A stretch of DNA of 64,000 nucleotides from Kiritimatiellia bacterium (lineage in GTDB: Bacteria; Verrucomicrobiota; Kiritimatiellia; UBA8416; JBFIFS01). Both the position numbers and the translations under genes were made by a program. The stretch spans positions 13,097-77,096 of the forward strand of contig JBFIFS010000001.1 of assembly GCA_041602695.1 (NCBI GenBank). The letters run 5' to 3'. Shown here piece after piece: positions 5,628-20,814 of the stretch. Numbering within the stretch: the first letter of the stretch is position 1; every line of letters starts with the position of its first letter. The notes under the pieces were generated by a model that was given only the letters and a program-made list of their open reading frames with translations, did not search any database and was not told where the DNA came from.

Positions 5628-7172
5628 TCAGTCCAAAAGCGCCTGCAATCCCTCGATATGCGATGCAAGTGCCTTATCATCAACGCGTTGCGCGGCATCG
5701 AGCGCCTTCTTCATTGCCGCTGCCCCTTCGTTTATAAATCCTTGGGCATGAAGGCTCTTGGCGGCCGCGAGATAGCGCAGGCTGGATTTCTCAAACTCAT
5801 CCGCACGCGCGAAGTATGCAGCGCCCCTCTCGAGCGCGTTAGCCATCCCATATAGCAATCCAGCCGTGCTCAGTTCGCTTGCCTCCCTGTCGCTTAGCTC
5901 TCCGGCGCGGCGCGGCGTTTCGACTGCAAGGCGAGCCATGCCTCGGTAGAAAGCCGCCTTTGCCGCAGAGGTGCCCTTCTTTTCGACCTTCCTCCAATAT
6001 GTATCCTCTACCTCTTTGGCTTTAGTCTCATCTCCGGTGTTTGCCAGAAGCAGGTAGGCTGCTGCGATGAACTCCGAATGACCATCAAAAGGCATTCCCC
6101 TGGGAGGACGCTCCAGTACGCCTATCGATGCGTAAGATGCCGCCCAGCTCTTGTCTTCCTGGTGAATCAGGGCTCGCAACGCCTCGTTGTGGGCGACGCT
6201 GACAGGATCGCGTCTTCCCGACAAGTCCGCTTCCCGAAGAATGACTGCGGCGTCCTTCGCCTCTCCATTTCCATACATGCAGGCGGCTAAATTATAGGCG
6301 GTGCGCGCGATCTCTCCAGCGTCTGCCGTCTTTCTCGCTTCAGTAAGCTCTGCTTCGCACTTTCTGTACAGGTCCGGCTCCGTCTTGGCATAGAAGCCGT
6401 AGAGCGGAGATATGAACTCACTTGCTTCCTTTTCGGGAATATACTTGCGAATGAGCCAGTGTTTTTGTGCCCCCTTGATCAGGCGACGCGTCTCATGAAC
6501 GGTCGCACCGGCCTCCGCGAGTATTTCATTGAGGTGATTGATTGCCTCGCGGACATCAGCCGTGAGGGTCGGATCCGTGATCATCGTACCGAGCAGCCCT
6601 TCGCCGCCGCTCAGGTCTCCGGCTATCTTGTTGGCGTTCGACATCACACCGCTGGCCTCATCGACCATGGGCACGACAGCGGCCTGGAGCTGCTCTACTG
6701 CCTTCTTTGCAATCTCCATCAGCTCTTTGTCTTTGTAACAAGCGATCACTCCACCGTCCGCAATCTGCTCGCCCTGCCCTTCCGTAATTTCGATATGAGT
6801 ATCACCGGCGAGTCCGAACATCTTTTTTACGCGGGCAACGGAGTCCACGCTGACGTAGCGATGAAAGCGCTCTTTAATCTCCAGGACGGCCATCAGGCCT
6901 CCGTCATCCAGAGGCTCGATGCTCTTGACGCGGCCTGCCTTCGCGCTGCGTATCTTTACTTCATCGCCCTCCTGCAGGTCAAAGCTGCCCTGTTCCGCAG
7001 ACGACTTCCCGTCCGCATCCATAAAGACGGCATGGATTTCCACCCTGCCCTCAAACCATCCCTGCGCTTTTCCCGCGAGGATGACGCCTAGAATGAAGAG
7101 AGACAGAGCAATGAGAACCATTGCTCCAACTGTTTCGTTAACATAACGCAGCCCTGGCTTATTCGTAGTCAC
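5628..7172 (-). CDS. MlaD/MCE-domain protein with a long alpha-helical (TPR-like) C-terminal extension
   Basis: N-terminal TM (VGAMVLIALSLFILGVILAG) followed by an MCE-like barrel segment (GDEVKIRSAKAGRVKSIEP...LGLAGDTHIEITEG). About 380 further residues are rich in A/E/L. 14-nt overlap with the upstream ATPase-like gene. Confidence 0.65.
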   Translation of the reverse strand: MTTNKPGLRYVNETVGAMVLIALSLFILGVILAGKAQGWFEGRVEIHAVFMDADGKSSAEQGSFDLQEGDEVKIRSAKAGRVKSIEPLDDGGLMAVLEIKERFHRYVSVDSVARVKKMFGLAGDTHIEITEGQGEQIADGGVIACYKDKELMEIAKKAVEQLQAAVVPMVDEASGVMSNANKIAGDLSGGEGLLGTMITDPTLTADVREAINHLNEILAEAGATVHETRRLIKGAQKHWLIRKYIPEKEASEFISPLYGFYAKTEPDLYRKCEAELTEARKTADAGEIARTAYNLAACMYGNGEAKDAAVILREADLSGRRDPVSVAHNEALRALIHQEDKSWAASYASIGVLERPPRGMPFDGHSEFIAAAYLLLANTGDETKAKEVEDTYWRKVEKKGTSAAKAAFYRGMARLAVETPRRAGELSDREASELSTAGLLYGMANALERGAAYFARADEFEKSSLRYLAAAKSLHAQGFINEGAAAMKKALDAAQRVDDKALASHIEGLQALLD

Positions 7173-7851
7173 TACATGTTTCCTCTCTGGAATTTGTGTC
7201 TCTGATTGAAATTCGCCTTATTTCGGGCACACCTAAGTCTGACTCGTCGCCGGGTGGCTCCGCTCCGCTCCAAATCAGCGTCCCGCCAGATGCAATGTAC
7301 TTGCTGACCTGCTCCCTTAGCTGAACCGTGTGTGAGATCCCTGGCACCGTGTCACTATTGTCGAAAAGAAGAAGGGAGGGTGTTCCGAGAAAAGCCCTGA
7401 CCCACTGGCATCTTTCCAGGACAGAAGCGGCGGCGCCCTCAGGGCGCTCGTCCAGATGTTGCGTGACATCAAAGATAGCTGCGAGCAAGGCGATCTCCTC
7501 GTTGACCTGATCGGCCGTCAGGAAGCCCGCGTGCAGAACACGAAGTCCCACATTCATTCTCAAAGAGAGGTTCTCAATCCACGCCTTGTCGTGGGGAAAG
7601 ACTCGTCCGATCTGAGCGCGGGCCCGGCACTCCGCGAAGGGATCCAACTCACGCCATCGGAACCCCTGAAAGATTACCTCCCCCTTTATTGGCGGCACCA
7701 GCCCGGAGAGCACGTCATAGATCTCCTCGCAATTGCCGTGGGCCCAAAGGACCTGTCCCTTGTCGGCAGAAAACGAAAAGGCGGCTCCGGAGGACAGAAC
7801 CAGATCTCTCGCTTCCAGCAGGGACGCTTTGTTGTTGGTGGAATCAGACAT
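7159..7851 (-). CDS. Degenerate (probably non-catalytic) ABC ATPase homologue, MlaF position
   Basis: Length and motif order match an ABC nucleotide-binding domain, but each motif is mutated (see finding). Start is either the ATG at 7851 (8-nt overlap with the mlaE stop) or 7869. Confidence 0.6.
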   Translation of the reverse strand: MSDSTNNKASLLEARDLVLSSGAAFSFSADKGQVLWAHGNCEEIYDVLSGLVPPIKGEVIFQGFRWRELDPFAECRARAQIGRVFPHDKAWIENLSLRMNVGLRVLHAGFLTADQVNEEIALLAAIFDVTQHLDERPEGAAASVLERCQWVRAFLGTPSLLLFDNSDTVPGISHTVQLREQVSKYIASGGTLIWSGAEPPGDESDLGVPEIRRISIRDTNSREETCSDYE

Positions 7852-8650
7852 AGAAAATAACAGATACAAGAAACGATACTACAAGCATTGTCGCAATCGA
7901 AAGGACGACCCCTTTCGTGACCGCCTGCGGTATTTCTGTGCTCAGGCCGCTGGTCGAGAGGCCTTCCACGCAGCTTATAGCGCCAATCACGAGGCCGCCG
8001 AAAAGGCATTTCACCGCGAAGTCAAAGATGGCCGCCGGCGCAAGTGCAAACAGGACGGAATCCGCGAATTGCTGAAGTGTCACCTCCATCGTGCCGGTAA
8101 GCACACCGGCTATCCACCCGGAGAATAGAGATACAGCAACAAAGATCATGCTCAGACAGAAGTGCGATATGGATATGGCGGCGGACCGAGGCATTACCAG
8201 GTAGGTGAAGGTGTCAACGCCCTGTGCCTCCAGCACATGGAGCTCATGTCTGTTCCGCATGCCGGCCAGCTCCGCGCAGATTGCGGTTCCGCTGCGTCCA
8301 ATAATCACGAATCCAACAAACACGGGCGCTATGCCCGAAATCAGCAGGCGAACCAGGACCGTTCCCGTCAGGTCACTCTGCCCGATATTGGCCATCCAGA
8401 TCTGGACCTGCAACACCACGGCAACCCCGCAAAGGCATGAGAGGAGCACTATCAGCCGCAAAGCCTGTACACCACTGAAATAGAGCTGCCGCACAAAAAC
8501 AGATCTCACAGGGTAAGACCAGCTCCGTACATCAAGAGATACCCGGGTTGCCGCTAAAGCTACAGCGGCTATTCGGCTCGCCTCACTAAAGACAGAACGG
8601 GTCCTCTCGCCAACCGCCGCGAGGACTGCGGCCGCGTCCGCACTTCGCAT
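7844..8650 (-). CDS. mlaE: MlaE-family ABC transporter permease
   Basis: 268 aa, multi-TM, with the family-typical GRSGTAICAELAGMRNRHELHVLEAQGVDTFTYLVMPR segment. Confidence 0.8.
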   Translation of the reverse strand: MRSADAAAVLAAVGERTRSVFSEASRIAAVALAATRVSLDVRSWSYPVRSVFVRQLYFSGVQALRLIVLLSCLCGVAVVLQVQIWMANIGQSDLTGTVLVRLLISGIAPVFVGFVIIGRSGTAICAELAGMRNRHELHVLEAQGVDTFTYLVMPRSAAISISHFCLSMIFVAVSLFSGWIAGVLTGTMEVTLQQFADSVLFALAPAAIFDFAVKCLFGGLVIGAISCVEGLSTSGLSTEIPQAVTKGVVLSIATMLVVSFLVSVIFYV

Positions 8651-9599: not shown

Positions 9600-10409
9600 A
9601 TGTACGAGATGATTATCAGGGGCTGTCGGGGCACGGTGCCTGTCTGCAGCACTCAGTTTGTCGATTTTGGCGGATGCAGTACATCGTTCTCTGTGAACAC
9701 GCCAGAGGGACTGCTGCTGATTGATGCCGGAACGGGCATTAAGTCCGTCGATCCGGTAACCGCCCCTGATTCTATTTACCTGCTTTTTACCCACTACCAC
9801 GTGGATCACATATCTGGCCTGCCTGTATTTGCGCCCTTATATTACAAGGGCAAGACGGTCACTCTTATGGGCGATCCGCAGCGCGAGGATAACTGGCGGG
9901 ACACGTTGTCAAATTTCATGACCAAGCCCTACTGGCCAATTGGTATTGCTGACACCCCCGCGAAGCTTTCAATGGAAGACCTTGTGCCCGGCGGCGATCT
10001 GCGCCTCGGGGATGTCAGGGTGACGTGGATGCCCCTGCCCCATCCGCAGGGCTGCCTCGCGTTCAGGATTGACTGTCCTGACTACAGTGCTGTTATTGCC
10101 ACCGATGTCGAGTTCCCGAAAGACATAGTTCCCGATGAGTTTTCGGAGTTTGCTTCCGGAGCGACATTCCTCATATTTGACGCGCAGTACCACCCCGCCG
10201 AGCTTCTGGAGCACCAGGGCTGGGGCCACAGCTCCTGGAGGACGGCCTGCAGGGCGGCAGCCGATTCCGGGGCAAGAAACCTTATACTGACTCATCATGC
10301 CCCGGACAGGACAGATCTTGAGATTCGGGATATCGAACGGCTGGCCAAAAAGGAGTTTGCAGACACTGTAGCCGGATCGTGCGGAATGACTATTTGGCCG
10401 CAGATCTGA
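9600..10409 (+). CDS. Metallo-beta-lactamase-fold hydrolase
   Basis: HYHVDHISG (HxHxDH) motif plus downstream His/Asp ligand candidates. 20-nt convergent overlap with the gene at 10390. Confidence 0.75.
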   Translation: MYEMIIRGCRGTVPVCSTQFVDFGGCSTSFSVNTPEGLLLIDAGTGIKSVDPVTAPDSIYLLFTHYHVDHISGLPVFAPLYYKGKTVTLMGDPQREDNWRDTLSNFMTKPYWPIGIADTPAKLSMEDLVPGGDLRLGDVRVTWMPLPHPQGCLAFRIDCPDYSAVIATDVEFPKDIVPDEFSEFASGATFLIFDAQYHPAELLEHQGWGHSSWRTACRAAADSGARNLILTHHAPDRTDLEIRDIERLAKKEFADTVAGSCGMTIWPQI

Positions 10410-11535
10410 TCTGAGGGGGCAGAGACTCCAGCGAGATGGTTCCGTCTACTTGCGCCTGAAGTGCATGGCCGGCAACCATGTCGATTTCCTTGCTATTGCC
10501 GGGCCACGGGTACTGCTCCATCAGTTCGATGACTTCCTGGCTCATGTTCGGCAGGACCCCGCCCTCTTTGTTGATTCGGGTTTGCATGGCCATGCGCAGC
10601 GTCGGAACCACGTCTTCCTTTCTGTCTCGCAGCGGCGGGATCTTTATGAGGATGATCTTCAAAGCCTTGTAGAAGCTCAGGCTCAACTCGCCGGCCGCGG
10701 CCATCTGTTCCAGATTACCTGTCCCTGATGCAATGATGCGTGCATCGAGCAGGCGCTCCTTGTCCTGCTCAGAAGAAGTAAACTTTTTGTCTTCAAGGAT
10801 CGTCGCAAGCCGCTCCTGTTCCTGTAATGGCAGCGACTCTATCTGTTTCAGGTAGAGGGTAGCCCCACAAGCCCTGTCCAGCGCCGAAGGCTTTCCTGGC
10901 TCACCGGCAAGCAGCGTTCCCGCCTCCGGACGCGAGCAGTCGACCGTAACCATTTCTTTGTCCTTACGCCGGCTGTACTGATGCAGTGTTTCTGCGACGA
11001 GACTCTTGCCTGTGCCCTTTTCTCCCGTAATAAGCACTGTGACATCGGTTCCTGCTACACGGCTGATCATGTCGCAGACGCTCTTCATTATGGGGCTTTC
11101 CGCCACAATGCCTTCGAACTGGTATGTCGATTCAAGCTGCAGGTTAAGGTTAACGGAATCGGAGTCCAGCAGGCCCTGAAAATCTACTGCGCGCTGCACC
11201 GTGCTCAGAAGCTGATCAATCTTGAGCGGCTTCTCAAGGCAAGCGAACGGCGACGCCTCTGCCACGCTCTGCATGGTGTTCTGGTCTGATGCGTCAATTA
11301 TCGCTATCACTGGGACAGCCGGATGGGCCGTCCTGACGCTCTTTACCAAATTGAACTCAGGATCCGCTTCTCCACCAGCAGATGCGAGTACCAGATCATA
11401 CGCAGCCCCCGCAAGCTTTTCCTCCGCCTGCTTACCATCGGCGGCAGCGTCAACCTTGTACCCCTCTGTTTTAAGCAGTTTTGTCAGAATTGCCGTCGTG
11501 CCCTGGTCTATGCTTGCTAAGAGAATTCCTGACAT
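10390..11535 (-). CDS. Pseudo-receiver + degenerate AAA+ sigma-54-activator-like protein (no GAFTGA, no HTH)
   Basis: Walker A GEKGTGKS and the C-terminal WPGN box place it in the bacterial enhancer-binding protein (bEBP) AAA+ family. Start chosen at the ATG at 11535 (MSGILLASID...), 1 nt after the cyclase stop (TAA-A-ATG); the track start at 11649 would overlap the cyclase by 113 nt. Confidence 0.7.
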   Translation of the reverse strand: MSGILLASIDQGTTAILTKLLKTEGYKVDAAADGKQAEEKLAGAAYDLVLASAGGEADPEFNLVKSVRTAHPAVPVIAIIDASDQNTMQSVAEASPFACLEKPLKIDQLLSTVQRAVDFQGLLDSDSVNLNLQLESTYQFEGIVAESPIMKSVCDMISRVAGTDVTVLITGEKGTGKSLVAETLHQYSRRKDKEMVTVDCSRPEAGTLLAGEPGKPSALDRACGATLYLKQIESLPLQEQERLATILEDKKFTSSEQDKERLLDARIIASGTGNLEQMAAAGELSLSFYKALKIILIKIPPLRDRKEDVVPTLRMAMQTRINKEGGVLPNMSQEVIELMEQYPWPGNSKEIDMVAGHALQAQVDGTISLESLPPQIRSAAK

Positions 11536-11536
11536 T

Positions 11537-13777
11537 TTAGTCCTTTGTTGCTCTGATAAACTCGCCGTTCCAGCCCACCTCGGGCTCAGCTTCCCTGTAA
11601 CCGCTAATGCGCAACAAGAGCTTAACACAGGGACCGTCCTCTTGGTCAAGCGATAATGCCTGCTTCAGAAGCCTTTCAGCCCTGTCCCAGTCCCGGTCCC
11701 AGTGCGCTTTCAGAGCTTCTTCATAGAGGTCTGTAACCTTCCTTCGCTGCTCGTCAATCTCGCCTTTCCTGGCTATTAGTTCGTAGAGAAGGATCGGTCG
11801 AGTCTTACCTTTGACTATGATCTTGTCGAGCATTCTGGCCTCAATGTGGTCTTTTGCGGCCTCGTATGTTGTTTCCCCGATAGCTATCATTGTTCCGTAG
11901 TCTTTGTTCGCCGGCTCAAAGCGCGCCGCCTGGTTCACGGGGTCCCCCATTACGGTGTACTGGAAGCGCCTGTCGGAACCCATGTTGCCCGCAGTGACGG
12001 TGCCTGAGTTAATCCCCATCCGGACGTGAAGCTCATGACCGAACTCTTCAAGCAGTGCCGGACGGATACGATCCAGCGCGGCCTGCTGCTCGATCGCAGC
12101 AAGGCATGCCTGAACCGCGTGGTCTTCGGTTGGAAAAGGAACACCCCACTCCGCCATAATTGCGTCTCCCTGGTATTTGTCCACATATCCGCCCCTGTCC
12201 ATGATGATCTGAGTCATAGGGCTGAGATACCGGTTCAAAAGTTCGGACAGCTTTGCCGGCTCCAGGCTCTCGGAGATGGTGGTAAAAGCCCGGACGTCAG
12301 AGAAGAACATTGTTGCCTCGGCCTTTTGTCCTGACAGGGAAAAGCTTCCCGGATTCTTTTCGAGATATGTGAGGACGTCCTCTGACACCATTGTGCCGAA
12401 CATGTCGCGAACCTTTTTCTTCTGGAGCTCCTCCTGCCAGAACTTGATCATCGTAAGGACAAGGTAGACTATGACTATTGTTATAATGATCCAGACCGGG
12501 ACGAAAACGAGGTGATACTCCTGGATCAGCAGCACGCTGGAGGCATAGGCGATCCAGATCATGGCAACGGTCACCAGGAAGCTCATCCACGAGCGCCCTC
12601 GTGCGATAAGGAATGAGAGAGCAAGGCCGGTGAGCAGGATGAAGATCGCCTGGACTCCTGTAAGGTAACTCGGCGCCAGCAGCATGTCGTCGGCAAGAAT
12701 ATTGTCTACCATCGTGGCGTGTATTTCCACGCCTGAAAAATGCTGTGTAAGCGGCGTGGCCCGGAGGTCCTTGAGCGCCGCCGCCGAAGTCCCCATGAAG
12801 ACAATCTTGTCAGCGAGCTCTCTTGACCCTACCTTGCCGTCCAGAATGTCTTTCGCGGAATAGGTGGGGAAAGAGCTGTAGAATCCCGACTTTGCGCTCT
12901 TGTTGATCGTTCGGTAATTGACCACGATTCTTCCGGCGTGATCAGTGGGAATCATGTAACTGCCCAGTCGTATGCGCGTGATGCCGTTTTCATCGTAGAA
13001 TACCATCCCGGAGCTGATCCCTTTGTCCAGCCTGACGGCCTCAAGTGCGAGCGCCGGATAGACCCGTTTGGGACCGTAAGCCCATATCAGGGGATTGCTT
13101 CTGACAACACTGTCGGAATCAACCAGGGCGTTAAAGAATGCAGTATTCGCGGCCTCGTTCAAGGCGAGTATCGGCACGCTCATTGTGTCCGCCTGGACCA
13201 AGAACTGTATTGGGTTGAGCTTTGCTTTACCCATGAAGGAAAGATAGGACGAGTAGAAGGGATCGATGGAATCGTCAACCATGTCGGCGGGGCGATCGAC
13301 CGGCCACATCATAATACCGAGAATAGCATTTCTGTTGCTCAGGCTTCCGGCAAAGACCTGATCGAAGTCGTGCACCTCATCCGGCAGGCCCTTGATGTGA
13401 ACATCAGCATCAAAGGCGCGCTTAATTCGAGCGGTAAGGATCTTAGGGGAAGTCCTGTCCTGCTCGGAAAATAGTATGTCATACGCAAGGACCGACGCCC
13501 CTGACTCAAATATCCTGTCATTAAGCCTGGCTACCAGATAACGGGGCCACGGCCATTGCCCCAAGTGCGGGTCCGCCATGCTGTCATCATCGATGTCAAC
13601 AATAACCACCCTCCCTGACTTCGGTGGTTCGCTTACGCGACGGAGAAGCGCGTCATAAGCATAATTTGAGATCGCCTGAATGAAGCCTGGGCCCCAGAGG
13701 AAGAGTATGAGGCAAACCACGGTGACCGCGAGCCCAACCAGCATCACCGGGTTTATGCGGCGCAATGTTTTCAGCAT
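11537..13777 (-). CDS. CHASE2-domain membrane-bound class III adenylate (nucleotidyl) cyclase
   Basis: N-terminal TM followed by a CHASE2 signature (VVIVDIDDDSM...GQWPWPRYLVARL...AYDILFSE). Then a block of TM helices and a cyclase domain (FSDVRAFTTISE, DKYQGDAIMA, YTVMGDPVNQAARFE), ending in a short TPR-like tail. Confidence 0.85.
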   Translation of the reverse strand: MLKTLRRINPVMLVGLAVTVVCLILFLWGPGFIQAISNYAYDALLRRVSEPPKSGRVVIVDIDDDSMADPHLGQWPWPRYLVARLNDRIFESGASVLAYDILFSEQDRTSPKILTARIKRAFDADVHIKGLPDEVHDFDQVFAGSLSNRNAILGIMMWPVDRPADMVDDSIDPFYSSYLSFMGKAKLNPIQFLVQADTMSVPILALNEAANTAFFNALVDSDSVVRSNPLIWAYGPKRVYPALALEAVRLDKGISSGMVFYDENGITRIRLGSYMIPTDHAGRIVVNYRTINKSAKSGFYSSFPTYSAKDILDGKVGSRELADKIVFMGTSAAALKDLRATPLTQHFSGVEIHATMVDNILADDMLLAPSYLTGVQAIFILLTGLALSFLIARGRSWMSFLVTVAMIWIAYASSVLLIQEYHLVFVPVWIIITIVIVYLVLTMIKFWQEELQKKKVRDMFGTMVSEDVLTYLEKNPGSFSLSGQKAEATMFFSDVRAFTTISESLEPAKLSELLNRYLSPMTQIIMDRGGYVDKYQGDAIMAEWGVPFPTEDHAVQACLAAIEQQAALDRIRPALLEEFGHELHVRMGINSGTVTAGNMGSDRRFQYTVMGDPVNQAARFEPANKDYGTMIAIGETTYEAAKDHIEARMLDKIIVKGKTRPILLYELIARKGEIDEQRRKVTDLYEEALKAHWDRDWDRAERLLKQALSLDQEDGPCVKLLLRISGYREAEPEVGWNGEFIRATKD

Positions 13778-13808: not shown

Positions 13809-15566
13809 TCAGAACAGGTCCGCACCAAAGCCGCCATGCGCGCTGGCTGCCGTTCCGTGATTGAAATTGAACGTCCCTGCCGCGCCCGTTATTGGAACGG
13901 TGCCCATCCCGGGGCCAACCAGATGTCCGCCGACAGTATGGCCCGTCAGTGAGCCGATGCCGTATGGAGTCCCATTGACAATAAGGCTGTAACTTGCGGG
14001 CGCCCCTGTCATTAATCCGTCACTCTGTATTATTCCCCCCGCCTGGAATGCCAGGCTGTCGCCGCCCATATTGTTCATCGAAAAATTGCCGTTCCAGTTG
14101 GGCGTAGTGCCCTGCCCCACCTGTACTGACAGGGCGCACGTGCCCTGTACCAGCCTGGCGTAGGGGCCAGCGAAGACCATGGCAGCCGCGGTGCCTGAAC
14201 CTGAGAGGTTGTACATGGTTGAACCGACAGCAATCGCAGCGAAGTCTGCTCCCTTTATCTTGGCAAGAGACCTGAATGCAACCGACTGAGGAACACCTTC
14301 AAGTTCCCATATCCCCCAATCCCAGTCCGTACCTCCTCCCATTTGCACAAGAACAGGAGATGGTCCCGGCGGCGGAGGCGGAGGATTGGTAGTTCCGTCC
14401 GGTGGCGGGGGGTCCTCATTCGGCGGCGGCGGTGGCGGAGGAGGCGGAGGTGGATCTTCCAGCTGGTCCTCAGGCGGCGGAGGAGGAGGCGGTGGCGGAG
14501 GAGGCGGAGGACGCGCAAGAAGTGTGTCGTCCGGGGGAGGCAGCAGCACGCTGCCATCGGGAGGCGGCAGGAGCGGATCGGTAGTATTTCCATCCGGCGG
14601 TGGAAGCAGCAAGCTGCCATCAGGAGGCGGCAGCTGTGTGGAGTCCGGCGGCGGCCTGCGGCGGGGCCTCGCATTGCGATGGCCGGGCCTAGGCCCATCA
14701 TCGGGTGGAGGAAGCATTGCAACATCTTCACCGGGCGGAGGAGGCAGGATTCCCTTGTCTTCCGGCGGCGGATCCTCGCCTTCCCTGAAAATTGGCTGGT
14801 CTTCATTCGCGGCATCACCGGCACCGGGCAGCGGGGCTGCGCTCAGGTCAAGGTTGGGATCCTTGTCAGCTCCGACAGGGGTGCAGTCATCTATCAGCCT
14901 GGCCAGGTCAGCTGGTGTAAGTTCTGTTTCCTTCAGTCCTTCGTTCTCGCTTATTGATACAATCCGGCCCGGCTTCTTGGCGTGCAGCGTCCTTGCGATA
15001 TCCTTACCTGTCTGCTGGATGCTCAAATTGTCCGGCTGCACTCCATCAAGGGCGGCTTTCGACGACGCAGTGATGACGACGCTCTCTTTTTCCCCAAGCT
15101 CAATTATGTAAATATTTTCAGACTGCTGAGAAATCCTGAAGCCCATTTCGCAGCCCCGAATTCCGATGGTGGCCATGCGGGTCTTTACCTGGAAGCGTTC
15201 CGGGTTCAGTTTGGTTATCTTCCCCGTTACCATGCGGAATATTCCCTTTATCGCACCGAGTGAACAGTTGGCGCTGTCCTTGTCGCCGGGGTTGTAGACA
15301 TACTTGTCTATCACGATCTCGCTCTTTTCTCCCTGAGAGATGACCGTCTCGTCCTTGAATATTATTTGCAGCTTTGCGCCCTCGCCGGTGGCCACCTTGT
15401 CATTGAGGAAGACCGGGCTCTTGATTTCCAGGGGGCGAAGTTTGGCATCGGTTCCGACGGCGGTGGCCTTTCCTTCCAACGCTATCACGCTGCCGATCGG
15501 TTCGGCGAATAACAGGGCAGGAAACAGCAGCCCCAAGCACAGTGCGTTTCGAATCAAAGCGTTCAT
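13809..15566 (-). CDS. Secreted FecR-domain protein with a polyproline spacer and a C-terminal Gly/Thr-rich beta-barrel-like domain
   Basis: Signal peptide (LGLLFPALLFA/EP). FecR-like segment (IGSVIALEGKATAV...VFLNDKVATGEGAKLQIIFKDETVISQGEKSEIVI). Residues ~265-404 are proline-rich. The C-terminus shows an alternating beta pattern and ends GGFGADLF. Confidence 0.7.
   Translation of the reverse strand: MNALIRNALCLGLLFPALLFAEPIGSVIALEGKATAVGTDAKLRPLEIKSPVFLNDKVATGEGAKLQIIFKDETVISQGEKSEIVIDKYVYNPGDKDSANCSLGAIKGIFRMVTGKITKLNPERFQVKTRMATIGIRGCEMGFRISQQSENIYIIELGEKESVVITASSKAALDGVQPDNLSIQQTGKDIARTLHAKKPGRIVSISENEGLKETELTPADLARLIDDCTPVGADKDPNLDLSAAPLPGAGDAANEDQPIFREGEDPPPEDKGILPPPPGEDVAMLPPPDDGPRPGHRNARPRRRPPPDSTQLPPPDGSLLLPPPDGNTTDPLLPPPDGSVLLPPPDDTLLARPPPPPPPPPPPPPEDQLEDPPPPPPPPPPPNEDPPPPDGTTNPPPPPPGPSPVLVQMGGGTDWDWGIWELEGVPQSVAFRSLAKIKGADFAAIAVGSTMYNLSGSGTAAAMVFAGPYARLVQGTCALSVQVGQGTTPNWNGNFSMNNMGGDSLAFQAGGIIQSDGLMTGAPASYSLIVNGTPYGIGSLTGHTVGGHLVGPGMGTVPITGAAGTFNFNHGTAASAHGGFGADLF
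14355..14774 (-). repeat. In-frame proline-rich low-complexity region (LLPPPDG repeats and polyproline runs)
   Basis: The plus strand shows a (A/C/T)GG triplet array. By my codon count there are runs of 13 (14472-14510) and 11 (14421-14453) consecutive Pro codons, plus four LPPPDG/LLPPPD repeats. Confidence 0.85.
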
Positions 15567-15582
15567 TCTATACCTCCATTAC

Positions 15583-17319
15583 TCAAAAGGCGTAAAACAC
15601 GGATGCCGTCGTAACCTCTCTGTCGTACTGATAAAGCGCGAATGAGGAAGTAGAGCGCGTGGACTGATAGTTGATGTCAGCACCAAAGCGGGTTCCAAAC
15701 CGTCGGCTTAGCCCCACGGTTACCTGGCGCTGTGAATCTTCCCTCTGTTCAGGCGAAAGGTCCTCTTTTTCAGCGTAGCTGGTCTTCGTGCTGGACAGCC
15801 TCCCATAGAGAACACAGCCCAACGGAATGACCTGCTCGGCGCCAAGGTTCCATGCGACGCTGTTGTACTCGTAGACTCCAGAATCCGTTCCGTCATGCGA
15901 GAACGCGAGGCCCATAACCACGCTGGCCTTGCCGTCCGGCGCGATCATCTTTACCGCCTGGCCGATTGACGCGTACCAGCCGTCTCGGTCATTGAGCTCC
16001 TTGTAGTCCCTCATCTCGGCGACCGCACTGGTTGTAAGGCTGACCCGTCCTCCGCTGTGCATGCGCCTGTAAACGGGGGCTATGCCTATCATATCCACCA
16101 GCGCTTCTCCTCCGGTATCGATATGCGAGTACCTGACAGGGATCCGAACCAATGAGCTTCCAAATGCTTTCGAGAAGCCGGCTGCACCCATCAGGTACAT
16201 CGTCTCGTAAATCTCCGCATCATCTAGTGTATTATTATAAGCCATAATGTCGGCAAAAGCAAGCCAGCCCCCCTGAGCTCCGACGTCAGAGGTCCCGGAA
16301 AGGCTGAGTGATGCGAACTGCCCTTTTGACTCCGCAGGAAGTGACTCGGAGGTCAGCGATAACTCGTCGATAGAGAGGCTGCCGAATACGATGGGAGCGA
16401 TGCTTATGATCGTGGAGTCCGGCCCGACGTTGACATTACTGTCATCGATGAATCCGACGTCGATACGTCCAGACAACGCTCGTTTCTTGGAGTAACCCTC
16501 CACCTCCCTCAGGTAACGCTCAACGTTGGCCCTCACTTTGCTGTTGAGATCGTGAGCCAAGACTTCCCTGAGGTTTTTGCGGGCGGCCTCGTAAAGGCGG
16601 CTCGCTACCTGGGCCCGGGCAAGCTCAAGGCGCGCCCTGTCATTTGCGGGGTTAACCATCAAAATGCGCTCGAACGCCAGGCGGGCCCTCGGATGGTCCC
16701 CCAGCGCCATGCAGGTCATGCCGTATGCGAAATTAATCTTCTGGTTCTCCGGGTCTGCTGCCAGTAACTCGCTGAGGAGTTTGTAGGATGTCTTCAAGTC
16801 ACCCGACTCGCGCGCTGCCTCGGCCTGACTGTAACGATCGTCAATGACCGGCTCCAGATAGACAGACTTCGTCTGCTTTACGAGAGCGGCAGCAACAGCC
16901 TTTGCGTTCTGTGACATGGCCAGCTGGAGCGGCGTGACACCTTTGTTTGCCTTCACGTCAACCCTCGCCCCCTTGGCTATCAGGAGGGTGGCTATTTCGC
17001 CCGCGTCAAAAAATGCGGCCCAGTGCAGGGGCGTGTAGCCCTCCGAGGTCGCGAGCTCTATGTCAGCTCCGCTTGCCGCCAGCAACTCAACCATCTCCTT
17101 GTTCTTGAGTCCCACGGCAAGATGGAGGGGCGTCGAACCGCCGGATGTCTGTGCGTTCACGGCCAGAGGCTCGGAAGCAAGAATGCGCCTCACGGCGTCG
17201 AAATCCTCATTCTCAACCGCGGTATGGATAGGCGCTGACTGCGCGCGCATGGTGGCCATCGATAATGCAAGCGCCATGGCCCAAAAGCACTGAGTTCTTA
17301 TGATAGTAGAAAAATGCAT
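15583..17319 (-). CDS. Outer-membrane protein: signal peptide, 3 ankyrin repeats, TPR-like region, C-terminal beta-barrel
   Basis: Signal peptide ALALSMATMRA/QS. ANK repeats (GGSTPLHLAV, GYTPLHWAA, GVTPLQLAM). TPR-like helices (residues ~160-280). The last ~290 aa show alternating beta-strand patterning with GFIDDSNVNVGP, and the protein ends in the OMP-typical aromatic terminus VFYAF. Confidence 0.65.
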   Translation of the reverse strand: MHFSTIIRTQCFWAMALALSMATMRAQSAPIHTAVENEDFDAVRRILASEPLAVNAQTSGGSTPLHLAVGLKNKEMVELLAASGADIELATSEGYTPLHWAAFFDAGEIATLLIAKGARVDVKANKGVTPLQLAMSQNAKAVAAALVKQTKSVYLEPVIDDRYSQAEAARESGDLKTSYKLLSELLAADPENQKINFAYGMTCMALGDHPRARLAFERILMVNPANDRARLELARAQVASRLYEAARKNLREVLAHDLNSKVRANVERYLREVEGYSKKRALSGRIDVGFIDDSNVNVGPDSTIISIAPIVFGSLSIDELSLTSESLPAESKGQFASLSLSGTSDVGAQGGWLAFADIMAYNNTLDDAEIYETMYLMGAAGFSKAFGSSLVRIPVRYSHIDTGGEALVDMIGIAPVYRRMHSGGRVSLTTSAVAEMRDYKELNDRDGWYASIGQAVKMIAPDGKASVVMGLAFSHDGTDSGVYEYNSVAWNLGAEQVIPLGCVLYGRLSSTKTSYAEKEDLSPEQREDSQRQVTVGLSRRFGTRFGADINYQSTRSTSSFALYQYDREVTTASVFYAF

Positions 17320-17410
17320 TACGTACCGTGGTTAGGATAAATTACGCCAACCTGCGTGTCAACGCCGCTTGTGCGGACCGACTGTGGCAATTCAGGGTGC
17401 ACATTGAATC

Positions 17411-17447: not shown

Positions 17448-18563
17448 ATGAGGATTTGCATAGATATTCAGCCAGCCGTAACTCAACGGGCCGGGATCGG
17501 CAGGTACGTGTCAGAGCTTGTGGGACATCTTCCAAAGGAAGACGATTGCAATTTCGACCTTTTTTACTTCGACTTTAAGGGCAGGGCCCGTCCGCCCCGT
17601 GCAGAAAGCTGCACTCTCAAGAGGTACTCTAAGCTCCCCGGGATGCTGGTTCAGCAGGCATGGAAGCGCGTTGGATGGCCGCGCTTCGATTCAATTGCCG
17701 GGGATGCTGACCTCTATCATTTCCCGAATTTTATTATCCCTCCCCTCTCCTCGGGCAAGAAGGCGGTGGTCAGTATTCACGATATCAGCTTCATCCTGCA
17801 TCCAGAGTTTGCGGAAAAGCGAAACCTTGATTACCTGTCCCGCCGGATTAAGGCGACGGTCCAGAGGGCCGATGCTGTGATAACTATTTCTGAGCAGAGC
17901 GCCAGCGACATAAATAAGCACCTGGGCGTGCCGCGTGAAAAACTTTCGCCCATACACCTTGGGGTGTCGCAGAGCTTTCAGCCTGCCCAGGATGAAGACA
18001 TCCTGTCCGCAAAGCAGGCTCTTGGACTGGACAGGCCTTTCATTTTGATGGTCGGCACGTTCGAGCCTCGCAAGAACATCCCGTATGCGGTGGAGCTCTT
18101 CGAAAAGATGTCGTTCTTTGATGGTGACCTCGTTATCGTGGGGCAGAAGGGTTGGAAGAATGAGGCTATCTTTGACGTAATCACCGCGTCTTCGCGCTCC
18201 GCAAGGATTAAAACAATTCAGGCGGTTTCCGACCAACACCTCGTAAGCCTCTATTCAGGGGCCGAATTTCTCCTCATGACGTCCCTCTATGAGGGCTTCG
18301 GCTTTCCCCCTGTCGAGGCAATGGCATGCCATACACCCGTGCTGACTTCGGCAGGAGGATCCCTTGCGGAAATCTGTGGTGACGCCGCTATAGTTATTGA
18401 GGAGTATGACCCGGAGCTGTGGCTTGAAAAGGCTCAGGCCATTCTGCACGATTCCGGGCTGCGAAATGATCTCGTCGCGCGAGGGATTGAGAAGGCTAAG
18501 AACTACACCTGGCAGAAGACTGCCGATGAGCACGTGTCCGCCTACAGGAAGGTCGTGAAGTGA
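17448..18563 (+). CDS. Glycosyltransferase, GT4 (group 1) family
   Basis: GT-B C-terminal signature SLYEGFGFPPVEAMACHTPVLTSAGGSLAEICGDAA. Confidence 0.8.
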   Translation: MRICIDIQPAVTQRAGIGRYVSELVGHLPKEDDCNFDLFYFDFKGRARPPRAESCTLKRYSKLPGMLVQQAWKRVGWPRFDSIAGDADLYHFPNFIIPPLSSGKKAVVSIHDISFILHPEFAEKRNLDYLSRRIKATVQRADAVITISEQSASDINKHLGVPREKLSPIHLGVSQSFQPAQDEDILSAKQALGLDRPFILMVGTFEPRKNIPYAVELFEKMSFFDGDLVIVGQKGWKNEAIFDVITASSRSARIKTIQAVSDQHLVSLYSGAEFLLMTSLYEGFGFPPVEAMACHTPVLTSAGGSLAEICGDAAIVIEEYDPELWLEKAQAILHDSGLRNDLVARGIEKAKNYTWQKTADEHVSAYRKVVK

Positions 18564-19714
18564 AAGTTCTCGTCGATGCCCGATGGATATTTCCCGAAAT
18601 ATCAGGAATAGGACTTTACACAGTGGAGCTTCTTCGCGCCCTGCTGGCGCAGGACCGCGAAAATGACTATGTCGTGCTGTTCAGTGATGCGGGCGTGATG
18701 GAGCGCACCGTGCTTGACCTGGGGCTTGATGAGGCGCGGAACGCGGAAGCGAGCCTCGTGCCCTACGGTGTCTTCTCCATGAAGAGCCAGCTCATGATGC
18801 CTTCCTACATTCGTGGGATCGGCGCGGATATATTCCACTCCACAAACTACATGGTGCCGATGGCGGCGTTTTCTGCGCTGCGCGCCAATAGAACTAAATG
18901 TGTGATTACGATCCACGACCTGATCCCCCTGCTCTTTCCAGATCATGCGCCGAAGGCAAAGAAGACGCGGCTCATGCCCCTCTATAGGTTCGTCATGAGA
19001 CAGGTGGCGGCCCGGGCCGACGCAATCCTGACCGTCAGCGAGAATTCCGCCCATGACATAAGGCGCATGCTTATGTCACGAAACGCGGATCACGCAAAGG
19101 TCGTGTCTGCCTACAACGGGGTTTCGGATGAATACCGCAAGCTCGCATGGGCGCCCGCGCGAAATCCGCGAAAACTGCTCTATGTCGGCAGGCTTGACCC
19201 ATACAAGAATGTCACAGGACTCATGCGCATTTTCAAAGGCGTGCTTGGGCGAACTTCAGAGAAGGTGAAACTGGTCATAGCAGGATCGAAAGATCCGCGC
19301 TATCCCGAAGCAGAAAGGCTTGCTGAAGAGCTTGGCGTCTCAGAGCACGTGGAATGGACCGGCTACGTCACCCCTGAAAAGCTGATTGCACTTTACGCGG
19401 AGGCAAGCGTTTTGGTGCATCCATCCCATTATGAAGGGTTCGGTTTACCGGTAGCGGAGGCAATGGCAGCCGGACTGCCGGTTGTCTGCAGCAGCGGAGG
19501 GTCGTTGTCGGAAGTCGCAGGCAACGCCGCATGCGTGCACGAACACACTGACGAAACGGGGTTTGTTGAGAGTATCTGTTCGATACTTGATTCAGAGTCA
19601 AAGGCGAAAGAGCTCTCGCAGCTTGGCCGCAGCCAGGCCGAGAAGTTTACGTGGGCCAATGCCGCCCGGAAGACGCGCGAGGTGTATGAAATGCTTGCAG
19701 GGGGGAACTCATGA
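18560..19714 (+). CDS. Glycosyltransferase, GT4 (group 1) family
   Basis: SHYEGFGLPVAEAMAAGLPVVCSSGGSLSEVAGNAA. GTGA start/stop overlap with the upstream gene. Confidence 0.8.
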   Translation: MKVLVDARWIFPEISGIGLYTVELLRALLAQDRENDYVVLFSDAGVMERTVLDLGLDEARNAEASLVPYGVFSMKSQLMMPSYIRGIGADIFHSTNYMVPMAAFSALRANRTKCVITIHDLIPLLFPDHAPKAKKTRLMPLYRFVMRQVAARADAILTVSENSAHDIRRMLMSRNADHAKVVSAYNGVSDEYRKLAWAPARNPRKLLYVGRLDPYKNVTGLMRIFKGVLGRTSEKVKLVIAGSKDPRYPEAERLAEELGVSEHVEWTGYVTPEKLIALYAEASVLVHPSHYEGFGLPVAEAMAAGLPVVCSSGGSLSEVAGNAACVHEHTDETGFVESICSILDSESKAKELSQLGRSQAEKFTWANAARKTREVYEMLAGGNS

Positions 19715-20814
19715 GGTACCCAGGCAATCATGGATCCAAGACAGCTTTGCTCTGCCACGACTGGCTTACGGGAATGCGGGGCGGGGAGAAAGTGCTGGAG
19801 ATCCTTTGCGAATGGTTTCCCGAGGCTGATGTCTGCACTCTTATCTGTAACCCTGGATCCATCTCCCAAACGATAAAGCGGCATCACATCCGTACATCTC
19901 GCCTCCAGTCCATGCCTGGCATCTTCGCGAACTACAGATATTACCTCCCCTTCTTTCCGTCAGCCCTCCGCTCCATTCGGGTTCCCCCGGCGGACCTGCT
20001 GATAAGCACAAGCCACTGTGTTGCAAAGGGGCTTCCCAAGCCGCCCTCCTCCCGCCATCTATGCTACTGCTTTACGCCCATGCGCTACGCCTGGCTGTTT
20101 CACGATGAGTATCTCGGGCGCAATCCTTTGAAACGCCTGCTCGCGGCGCCCATCCTGTCATATATGCGAAATTGGGACATGCGCACCGTGCCTAACGTGG
20201 ATATGTTCGTGGCCATAAGCCGCCATGTCGCCGACAGGATCCGACGTTTCTATGGACAGGAGGCGGAAATAGTCTTTCCTCCGGTAGATACGGACCGTTT
20301 CACGCCCGGGGACGAGAGCGCCGATTTTGACCTGATAGTTTCAGCGCTTGTGCCCTACAAGAAGGTCGATCTGGCCGTTGAGGCTTACCGAAATATGGAC
20401 CGGCGGCTAAAGATTGCCGGAACGGGAACCGAGCTCAAGCGCCTGCGTGAGAATGCTCCGTCGAACGTCGAGTTCCTGGAGTGGCAAAGCGATGACCAGA
20501 TTCTCGGGCTTTACAGGGCCTGCAGGCTCCTGGTCTTTCCGGGCGAGGAGGATTTCGGTATTGTGCCCGTAGAGGCCCAATCCTGCGGCAAACCGGTTGT
20601 TGCGTACCGCAAGGGCGGCGCCCTTGAAACGATAGCCGAGGGCGTTTCCGGCGTTTTCTTTGACGAACAGGACCCGTCCTCGCTTGCCCAGGCCGTAGAG
20701 GACTGTGCGGCCAGAAAGTGGGGGTCGGAAGCAATTCGGAATCACGCCCTCTCATTCAGCACGCAGAACTTTGTCAATGGCCTCGCCAGGTGCATTGACA
20801 AGCTGTTGGGCTGA
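19711..20814 (+). CDS. Glycosyltransferase, GT4 (group 1) family
   Basis: N-terminal CHDWLTGMRGGEKVLE and C-terminal EDFGIVPVEAQSCGKPVVAYRKGGALETI. ATGA overlap with the upstream gene. Confidence 0.75.
   Translation: MRYPGNHGSKTALLCHDWLTGMRGGEKVLEILCEWFPEADVCTLICNPGSISQTIKRHHIRTSRLQSMPGIFANYRYYLPFFPSALRSIRVPPADLLISTSHCVAKGLPKPPSSRHLCYCFTPMRYAWLFHDEYLGRNPLKRLLAAPILSYMRNWDMRTVPNVDMFVAISRHVADRIRRFYGQEAEIVFPPVDTDRFTPGDESADFDLIVSALVPYKKVDLAVEAYRNMDRRLKIAGTGTELKRLRENAPSNVEFLEWQSDDQILGLYRACRLLVFPGEEDFGIVPVEAQSCGKPVVAYRKGGALETIAEGVSGVFFDEQDPSSLAQAVEDCAARKWGSEAIRNHALSFSTQNFVNGLARCIDKLLG

Follow-up and report, generated by a model that had tools for sequence, protein, structure and literature searches.

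The 585-residue protein encoded at 13809..15566, on the reverse strand of a 64,000-nucleotide stretch of a Kiritimatiellia bacterium genome (GenBank assembly GCA_041602695.1, contig JBFIFS010000001.1, positions 13,097 to 77,096; the whole stretch is referred to as the window), joins an N-terminal FecR-type domain to a C-terminal barrel and most likely belongs to an apparatus for signaling across the cell envelope. Its gene stands between those of a Slam/DUF560-type outer-membrane protein (OMP) and a CHASE2 nucleotide cyclase, and the order OMP–FecR–CHASE2 is conserved in two phyla, occurring in dozens of genomes of the Planctomycetota–Verrucomicrobiota–Chlamydiota (PVC) superphylum and on plasmids of Paracoccus and Shinella. 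We regard it as an evenly balanced question whether the FecR–barrel gene supplies the central part of a conserved signaling module that spans the envelope from the outer membrane to the cyclase. By analogy, the module is best read as a split counterpart of the Sinorhizobium NsrA–CyaK system, with an OMP–barrel pair like that of the type 11 secretion system (T11SS) as its outer-membrane station. It combines known kinds of system, namely a T11SS-like pair and FecR/CHASE2 signaling.

The FecR–barrel gene is an uninterrupted reading frame with an ATG start and belongs to a real protein family; a chance open reading frame is excluded. All of its parts lie on the reverse strand. A signal peptide of the signal-peptidase-I type (residues 1–21, 15504..15566), with predicted cleavage after LFA, could be read from the sequence: the N terminus is MNALIRNALCLGLLFPALLFA before the cleavage site and EPIGS after it, with no lipobox. 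The family consensus, ...AA before the site and (D/E)PIGxV after it, likewise has no lipobox, and a lipobox-like string was absent in 131 of 145 family members. The FecR-type region follows at residues 22–235 (14862..15503), with the Pfam FecR (PF04773) core at residues 56–148 scoring 34.4 bits (cut-off 24; E 3.1e-8). Between this region and the C-terminal domain lies a proline-rich acidic spacer (residues ~240–402, 14361..14849) of LPPPDG-type repeats, including runs of 13 and 12 prolines; over residues ~245–402 it contains 7–14 prolines per 20 residues. Spacers across the family range from 43 to 519 residues (median 113) and are of low complexity (P 13%, G 12%, D 10%). The C-terminal domain (residues 408–585, 13812..14345), modeled as a WxWGxW hairpin followed by one helix and then by an 8-stranded barrel, ends in GGFGADLF. 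The original prediction, made from the sequence alone, had described just such a protein: the C-terminal residues and coordinates that it quoted match this frame exactly, and its combination of FecR domain, polyproline and C-terminal 8-stranded barrel was borne out by the Pfam match, the proline runs and the structural model described below.

A profile search with the C-terminal domain, covering 1.8 billion representative proteins, returned at least 191 clusters at 50% identity, 162 of them at E<1e-10. The barrel was invariably C-terminal, in proteins mostly of 450–600 residues, and FecR was at the N terminus in all 86 full-length members examined. An entry identical to the window protein was not present in the contig index. 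Within the motif ATIGIRGC of the FecR region, Cys139 (15150..15152) was invariant (86/86); in 23 of the 86 the exported protein, once mature, has no other cysteine, leaving a conserved residue free outside the cytoplasm. A disulfide between Cys139 and a periplasmic cysteine of CHASE2, present in 93% of partner domains, was considered and found not to be general, the window CHASE2 having isoleucine at that position. The N-terminal half of the FecR-like domain was matched by the NCBIfam LapA retention module (NF033682) in 80 of 86 relatives, below the cut-off (23.5 bits against 50), and Lsa33 and LipL45, which are surface proteins of Leptospira, were also weakly matched by the domain. Members of 750–940 residues (e.g. 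L036 10410.., L039 7983.. and L029 7929..) carry an additional conserved domain of ~250 residues between spacer and barrel, with the motifs YEG..ANDNLxQFxR..VNTRTG..FFGQxxQGVG. No second copy of the barrel was found in these proteins, which ruled out a duplicate barrel; the extra domain may be handle-like.

The C-terminal domain was modeled with AlphaFold2 using an alignment of 70 family sequences, a trial with three sequences having been discarded at pLDDT 46. The model (pLDDT 98.1, pTM 0.92) opens with a β-hairpin that carries a WxWGxW motif, near-invariant in the family; a single helix follows, and after it come eight long strands plus a short one. Foldseek against the PDB ranked the NHBA C-terminal domain (NHBA-C, 6cuj) first, with E values of 2.6e-5 and 1.7e-4 and template modeling (TM) scores of 0.50–0.56 by query and 0.56–0.66 by target, followed by TbpB (3ve1 and 5kkx, TM 0.57–0.58). 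As a set, the NHBA-C/TbpB matches had a probability of 1.00, E values of 2.6e-5 to 1.6e-3 and TM scores of 0.50–0.58. NHBA-C is assigned to the Pfam family TbpB_B_D (PF01298), whose barrels resemble the modeled domain in being 8-stranded meander barrels that follow a hairpin and in having a late-strand motif in register with it. The PVC domain differs from them in its larger size (178 residues), in its WxWGxW hairpin plus helix and in not belonging to a lipoprotein, and it shares 13–18% identity with them with no match at the level of hidden Markov models (HMMs). As modeled, the C-terminal domain is an 8-stranded barrel of the TbpB/lipoprotein-C type, with evidence at the level of the fold only. 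The proposal of a TbpB/fHbp-like barrel thus held for TbpB, which with NHBA-C headed the Foldseek results in place of any unrelated fold, and did not hold for fHbp, to which structural matches were poor (TM 0.35–0.38) and for whose C-terminal domain hhalign found no alignment.

By sequence, the C-terminal domain matched nothing in Pfam, NCBIfam or the PDB; in the PDB search (phmmer and the 70-sequence profile) the best match, 3rwx at E 0.17, was not meaningful. Published Slam substrates are themselves said to have no mutual sequence similarity (PMC5449769). A homology search from NHBA-C yielded only near-identical Neisseria fragments, hence a diverse TbpB_B_D profile was not available for comparison. 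Against NHBA-C, the family profile aligned in register over the last five strands (hhalign score 21.4, P 0.0096), a score reached by none of 200 shuffles; against a four-sequence NHBA/TbpB/LbpB mini-profile, over the last three strands, P was 0.0055 and again none of 200 column shuffles reached the score. The motif common to the PVC domain and the TbpB_B_D barrels is G-x-[FL]-[YV]-G-P ... G-x-[FY] ... G-x-F-[GA]. A much firmer alignment, over 145 columns at E 2.5e-5, was obtained with the C-termini of alphaproteobacterial FecR proteins from Paracoccus and Shinella; its score was 37.1, where shuffles averaged 13.0 and reached 25.2 at most. These C-termini, from Paracoccus pAMI5 and Shinella p1, gave E values of 2.3e-4 and, over the entire profile, 0.019 with TbpB_B_D and of about 2e-3 with FHBP_C (PF08794), all below cut-off. 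As judged by these profile comparisons, the strongest sequence link of the PVC barrel to TbpB_B_D is transitive, via the alphaproteobacterial homologues.

The gene immediately upstream (15583..17319, reverse strand), separated from the FecR–barrel gene by 16 nt, encodes an OMP of 578 residues with a signal peptide and the C terminus ...SVFYAF. It comprises ankyrin repeats (residues ~28–149, 16873..17238), tetratricopeptide repeats (TPR; residues ~160–270, 16510..16842), with strong Pfam Ank and generic Pfam TPR matches, respectively, and a predicted SlipAM/DUF560 barrel (residues 287–578, 15586..16461). The Pfam SlipAM match scored 26 bits (cut-off 22) over profile positions 6–278 of 288, and the barrel region of ~290 residues is of a length compatible with 14 strands; by Pfam's own criterion, this is a Slam/T11SS-family OMP. 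The match to TPR_Slam, at 29.2 bits, was below the cut-off of 35.2. Among 36 relatives, SlipAM was found in 29 (best E 1.9e-12) and TPR_Slam in 26 (E<=0.01), and 38 of 42 relatives ended in phenylalanine, the usual β-signal. A profile search of the PDB with the OMP family was dominated by TPR proteins. Ankyrin repeats ahead of the TPR also occur in 8 of the 36 relatives; periplasmic ankyrin repeats are unusual on a DUF560 protein.

Related loci were collected by scanning one genome per species for the FecR motif, so that the resulting set of loci is defined by FecR rather than by the barrel. It comprises 60 loci, nearly all from metagenome-assembled genomes (MAGs) of the PVC superphylum (Lentisphaerota, Kiritimatiellia, Verrucomicrobiota, Victivallales and Pontiella). 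Of the 41 barrel-bearing FecR genes with enough upstream DNA, 34 were immediately preceded on the same strand by a gene for a Slam-like OMP, and 26 were immediately followed by one for a CHASE2 cyclase. The placement of the gene immediately downstream of a TPR-plus-barrel OMP, also part of the original prediction, is therefore both confirmed in the window, by the SlipAM score and the short gap, and recurrent. Where a locus has two FecR genes (L036 and L039), one OMP gene precedes each. In these loci (L036 6672..15164 and L039 4130..12590), two tandem OMP–FecR pairs stand before a single CHASE2 cyclase, the first FecR protein being short and barrel-less and the second long and barrel-bearing, an arrangement that suggests several inputs to one cyclase. 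Short FecR proteins, of 247–329 residues, have a disordered tail in place of the barrel and are still flanked by SlipAM-positive OMPs. Several MAGs contain two or three paralogous copies of the family, and seven barrel-bearing FecR genes are orphans, adjoined by neither OMP nor cyclase (L003, L004, L007, L012, the second copy in L032, L033 and L034).

The alphaproteobacterial loci were found by tblastn of plasmids with the cyclase. Paracoccus aminophilus pAMI5 encodes, in order, a 'TPR protein' of 474 residues, a 'FecR domain protein' of 655 residues and the cyclase; Shinella p1 encodes a hypothetical protein of 469 residues, a FecR protein of 849 residues and the cyclase. The protein encoded ahead of FecR is in both cases homologous over its full length to the PVC OMPs (hhalign 99.2%, E 1.7e-19; hmmsearch 7.7e-34), and in both the last residue is phenylalanine. 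An NHLP-family bacteriocin export system (C39 peptidase/ABC transporter) adjoins the module in Shinella (L064 8116..14103) and Ensifer (L061 217..5713). A cyclic-nucleotide-binding protein is encoded near the Ensifer module, and a gene for a cyclic-nucleotide-binding patatin-like phospholipase adjoins that of Paracoccus. NHLP export and the cyclic-nucleotide-binding proteins are possible downstream targets of the cyclase.

Several known systems share features with the module. The Slam/T11SS systems (Neisseria meningitidis Slam1 with TbpB, LbpB and fHbp, Slam2 with HpuA, and the hemophilin systems) likewise have an OMP with N-terminal TPR and a DUF560 barrel (PMC5449769, PMC12282271), and an adjoining gene for a Sec-exported protein whose C-terminal 8-stranded TbpB-like barrel follows variable or disordered regions. 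The module differs from them in its PVC host, the published surveys having searched and reported Proteobacteria only; in the ankyrin repeats on the OMP, the FecR passenger and the existence of barrel-less partners; and in its third gene, which encodes a CHASE2 cyclase and not a TonB-dependent receptor or metal-uptake proteins. In the T11SS surveys FecR appears only as an anti-sigma neighbor in iron loci and CHASE2 never, and in the literature searched no paper was found with both CHASE2 and DUF560/T11SS. As the original prediction had anticipated, FecR is absent among published T11SS cargo types. Its companion claim, that a signal-peptidase-I signal would be new for such cargo, was mistaken, soluble cargo such as hemophilins being well known (PMC12282271).

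A closer functional parallel is provided by NsrA of Sinorhizobium meliloti, an outer-membrane protein that, as genetics shows, the CHASE2 cyclases CyaK, CyaD1 and CyaD2 require for perceiving external protein signals (PMC7529298, PMC13001267). Its gene lies directly upstream of cyaK, which encodes a CHASE2 adenylate cyclase, and specifies 1197 residues with FecR (residues 66–160), TPR (residues 417–531) and a C-terminal barrel region; the module has the same components (FecR, TPR and outer-membrane barrel) in the same position relative to its cyclase. Unlike NsrA, which is one chain, the module has these parts on two proteins, presumably joined by the Slam-type OMP and the TbpB-like barrel. 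Membership of NsrA in the OMP family was considered and rejected, only its TPR part matching the OMP profile and its large barrel not being DUF560-like. Genes for secreted FecR proteins beside CHASE2 sensors have been reported as well, namely Burkholderia LysM–FecR with a CHASE2 histidine kinase and the CHASE2 cyclase clusters of Campylobacterota (PMC5192318, PMC9239204), the latter also containing a TPR protein and a phosphodiesterase (PMC9239204), and a FecR–CHASE2 pairing is recorded in S. meliloti too (SMc02177). The Burkholderia and Campylobacterota reports describe neither a TbpB-like barrel nor a DUF560 OMP, and the outputs and accessory domains differ.

As in FecA–FecR–FecI cell-surface signaling, a periplasmic FecR-family domain would act as the relay from a protein of the outer membrane to an output at the inner membrane; unlike that system, the module has no anti-sigma transmembrane segment, ECF sigma factor or TonB-dependent transducer, its output is a nucleotide cyclase and its FecR protein is fully exported. 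The LapA-type RTX adhesin is retained in the LapE outer-membrane channel via an N-terminal retention module. The FecR–barrel protein resembles such an adhesin held in an outer-membrane channel in its succession of N-terminal globular domain, low-complexity linker and distal domain, and differs in export by Sec and not by type 1 secretion and in an outer-membrane partner that is DUF560-like and not TolC-like; threading through the OMP would be speculation.

Based on these comparisons, a working scheme can be proposed. The protein would be exported by Sec and cleaved by signal peptidase I to give a mature FecR domain, a long disordered or polyproline spacer and a soluble barrel. The Slam/DUF560-type OMP would recognize the C-terminal barrel, as Slam translocons do the barrels of their substrates, and would hold or expose it at the outer membrane, while the spacer would span the periplasm and the FecR domain would bind to CHASE2, the periplasmic part of the cyclase in the inner membrane. 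What happens at the cell surface or outer membrane would in this way alter cAMP or cGMP synthesis, with the sigma-54 regulator and putative phosphodiesterase encoded beyond the cyclase completing the circuit. We infer both contacts, the direction of signaling and the nature of the signal, as well as the topology, in which the barrel would be outside or at the outer membrane and FecR periplasmic.

A number of observations weigh against this scheme. The TM scores to NHBA-C and TbpB are moderate, and the HMM check that the original prediction had proposed, with TbpB_B_D and related models, came out negative: neither TbpB_B_D nor FHBP_C matched the window C-terminal domain at E<=10 or any of 86 relatives at E<=1. 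Foldseek also returned, at lower rank, the integral 8-stranded OMPs Ail, OmpX and NspA (TM 0.42–0.51). Among barrel-bearing genes, 15 of 41 have no adjoining cyclase and 7 of 41 no OMP. Conversely, a CHASE2 cyclase directly follows the barrel-less FecR genes of L045, L049 and L051 (L048 has the same neighbors, but its FecR frame meets an ambiguous base after 166 residues, so that the full length is not readable). As barrel-less FecR proteins keep both OMP and cyclase, the role of the OMP cannot be barrel handling alone; the conserved core consists of OMP, FecR and CHASE2, with the barrel common but dispensable. The Slam substrates known to us cross the membrane fully, and we know of no precedent in the Slam family for a half-translocated topology.

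Given that the OMP is of the SlipAM family and adjoins a gene with a cargo-like barrel, the protein could instead be conventional T11SS cargo, as the original prediction suggested, exported whole by the OMP, with FecR as a surface or released binding module and the cyclase regulating it or being co-regulated. There are known examples of T11SS cargo that is soluble and secreted completely (PMC12282271), the FecR domain has its weak Leptospira surface-protein matches, and the barrel-bearing genes without an adjoining cyclase would fit. We nevertheless consider this rather unlikely, since an extracellular FecR domain could not reach CHASE2. FecR–CHASE2 pairs occur in several phyla with no Slam-like OMP mentioned or annotated alongside, and those FecR proteins bear signal peptides, SMc02177 being predicted to be extracytoplasmic. 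In NsrA, moreover, FecR shares a chain with the outer-membrane barrel and acts upstream of the cyclase, and barrel-less FecR proteins have the same OMP and cyclase neighbors. It is the cyclase context, which the original prediction had overlooked, together with persistence in the absence of the barrel, that shifts the likely role from surface or secreted cargo to a trans-envelope signaling component. The barrel might also stay in the periplasm as a lipocalin- or hemophilin-like sensor that binds a small molecule or a protein, with the OMP as channel or receptor for the ligand and the whole protein reporting to CHASE2. Its conservation pattern is of the soluble type, ligand binding by TbpB-type barrels and handles is known from other proteins (PMC12282271), and the barrel-less variants show that the OMP–FecR–CHASE2 core works without barrel translocation; such a sensor would, however, leave unexplained the Slam/DUF560 and TPR identity of the OMP partner, the presence of exactly one OMP gene per FecR gene in the tandem loci and the retention of a spacer of 43–519 residues, and we judge it improbable.

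The Foldseek matches to Ail, OmpX and NspA, the terminal phenylalanine of the window protein and the precedent of NsrA for FecR joined to an outer-membrane barrel would each fit yet another arrangement, in which the C-terminal domain is an OmpX/Ail-like barrel inserted by the β-barrel assembly machinery that tethers a periplasmic FecR domain, as a miniature NsrA independent of the Slam-like OMP. Conservation of the two faces of each strand speaks against it. In seven of the eight barrel strands the hydrophobic, glycine-rich face is conserved (0.61–0.84) and almost free of charge, and the opposite face is polar, variable (0.31–0.57) and 13–31% charged across the family; only in the fifth strand (residues 111–123 of the domain) were the faces not clearly different. 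This pattern points to a packed hydrophobic core and not to a lipid-facing surface. An aromatic C-terminal residue was present in only 23 of 145 members of the barrel family (16%), as against 41 of 42 partner OMPs (F, Y or W), and tails of up to 56 residues follow the last barrel strand. On face conservation, rare terminal aromatics and tails the integral anchor is rejected, though not with certainty. Foldseek rank and identity also favor NHBA/TbpB (16–18%) over Ail/OmpX (8–10%), as does homology to the alphaproteobacterial domains that match TbpB_B_D and FHBP_C, and such an anchor appears very unlikely.

A more specific form of the preferred trans-envelope module would be a permanent tether for which the Slam/T11SS-type OMP serves as outer station and not as a secretion device, with the barrel pulled to the surface, the spacer passing through or alongside the DUF560 barrel, and a periplasmic FecR domain bound to CHASE2, such that ligand binding, pulling or loss of the barrel changes cyclic-nucleotide synthesis. 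The likeness of the FecR domain to the LapA retention module, below cut-off as it is, makes a tethered topology conceivable and proves nothing, and we hold this form to be possible at best. If true, it would constitute a new class of cell-surface signaling and give the orphan CHASE2 sensor a protein partner.

In broader terms, Slam/T11SS-like OMP–barrel pairs would reach beyond Proteobacteria into Lentisphaerota, Kiritimatiellia and Verrucomicrobiota, FecR would join the catalogues of T11SS cargo as a new passenger type, and the module would connect the fields of T11SS and CHASE2 cyclase signaling. For the question of what CHASE2 domains sense, a FecR protein that is their conserved, dedicated partner and has a mechanical link to the outer membrane would provide a concrete answer, and one that can be tested. 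The system of PVC bacteria, Paracoccus and Shinella, with its parts split, and the fused NsrA would form a Rosetta-stone pair, from which it can be predicted which of the proteins touch. With at least 191 clusters and no Pfam or NCBIfam model, the C-terminal domain merits definition as a family.

The remaining genes of the probable operon were annotated in the same way. A sigma-70-like match, TTGACA-17-TATCCT (17334..17362, reverse strand), lies 5′ of the OMP gene; it is a match to 10 of 12 consensus positions only and a possible operon promoter. The cyclase gene (11537..13777, reverse strand) starts 31 nt 3′ of the FecR–barrel gene and encodes a class III adenylate/guanylate cyclase of 746 residues, with CHASE2 at residues 20–385 (E 1.8e-54) and the cyclase domain at residues 484–660 (Guanylate_cyc, E 1.5e-22). 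It is followed by a sigma-54-type response regulator with REC, AAA+ and lid domains (10390..11535, reverse strand), whose likely start codon (ATG, 11535) directly adjoins the stop codon of the cyclase gene and which is probably the last gene of the operon. No helix-turn-helix DNA-binding domain was detected in this protein, and a histidine kinase is not encoded nearby. A response regulator also follows the cyclase in L008, L029 and L056.

Farther from the module, MlaE/MlaD-like genes (outer-membrane lipid asymmetry) are found at 5628..8650 on the reverse strand, a few kilobases away, and a glycosyltransferase cluster at 17448..20814 is divergent from it; no link to the module was established for either. 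Convergent with the operon end is a gene for a hydrolase of the metallo-β-lactamase (MBL) fold (9600..10409, forward strand; Pfam Lactamase_B_2), which may, as a candidate by annotation and position, be the cyclic-nucleotide phosphodiesterase of the module. An MBL-fold homologue follows the cyclase or the response regulator in seven PVC loci (L001, L008, L014, L023, L024, L040 and L056), and in Ensifer (L061 8865..9773) the MBL-fold gene overlaps the end of the cyclase gene.

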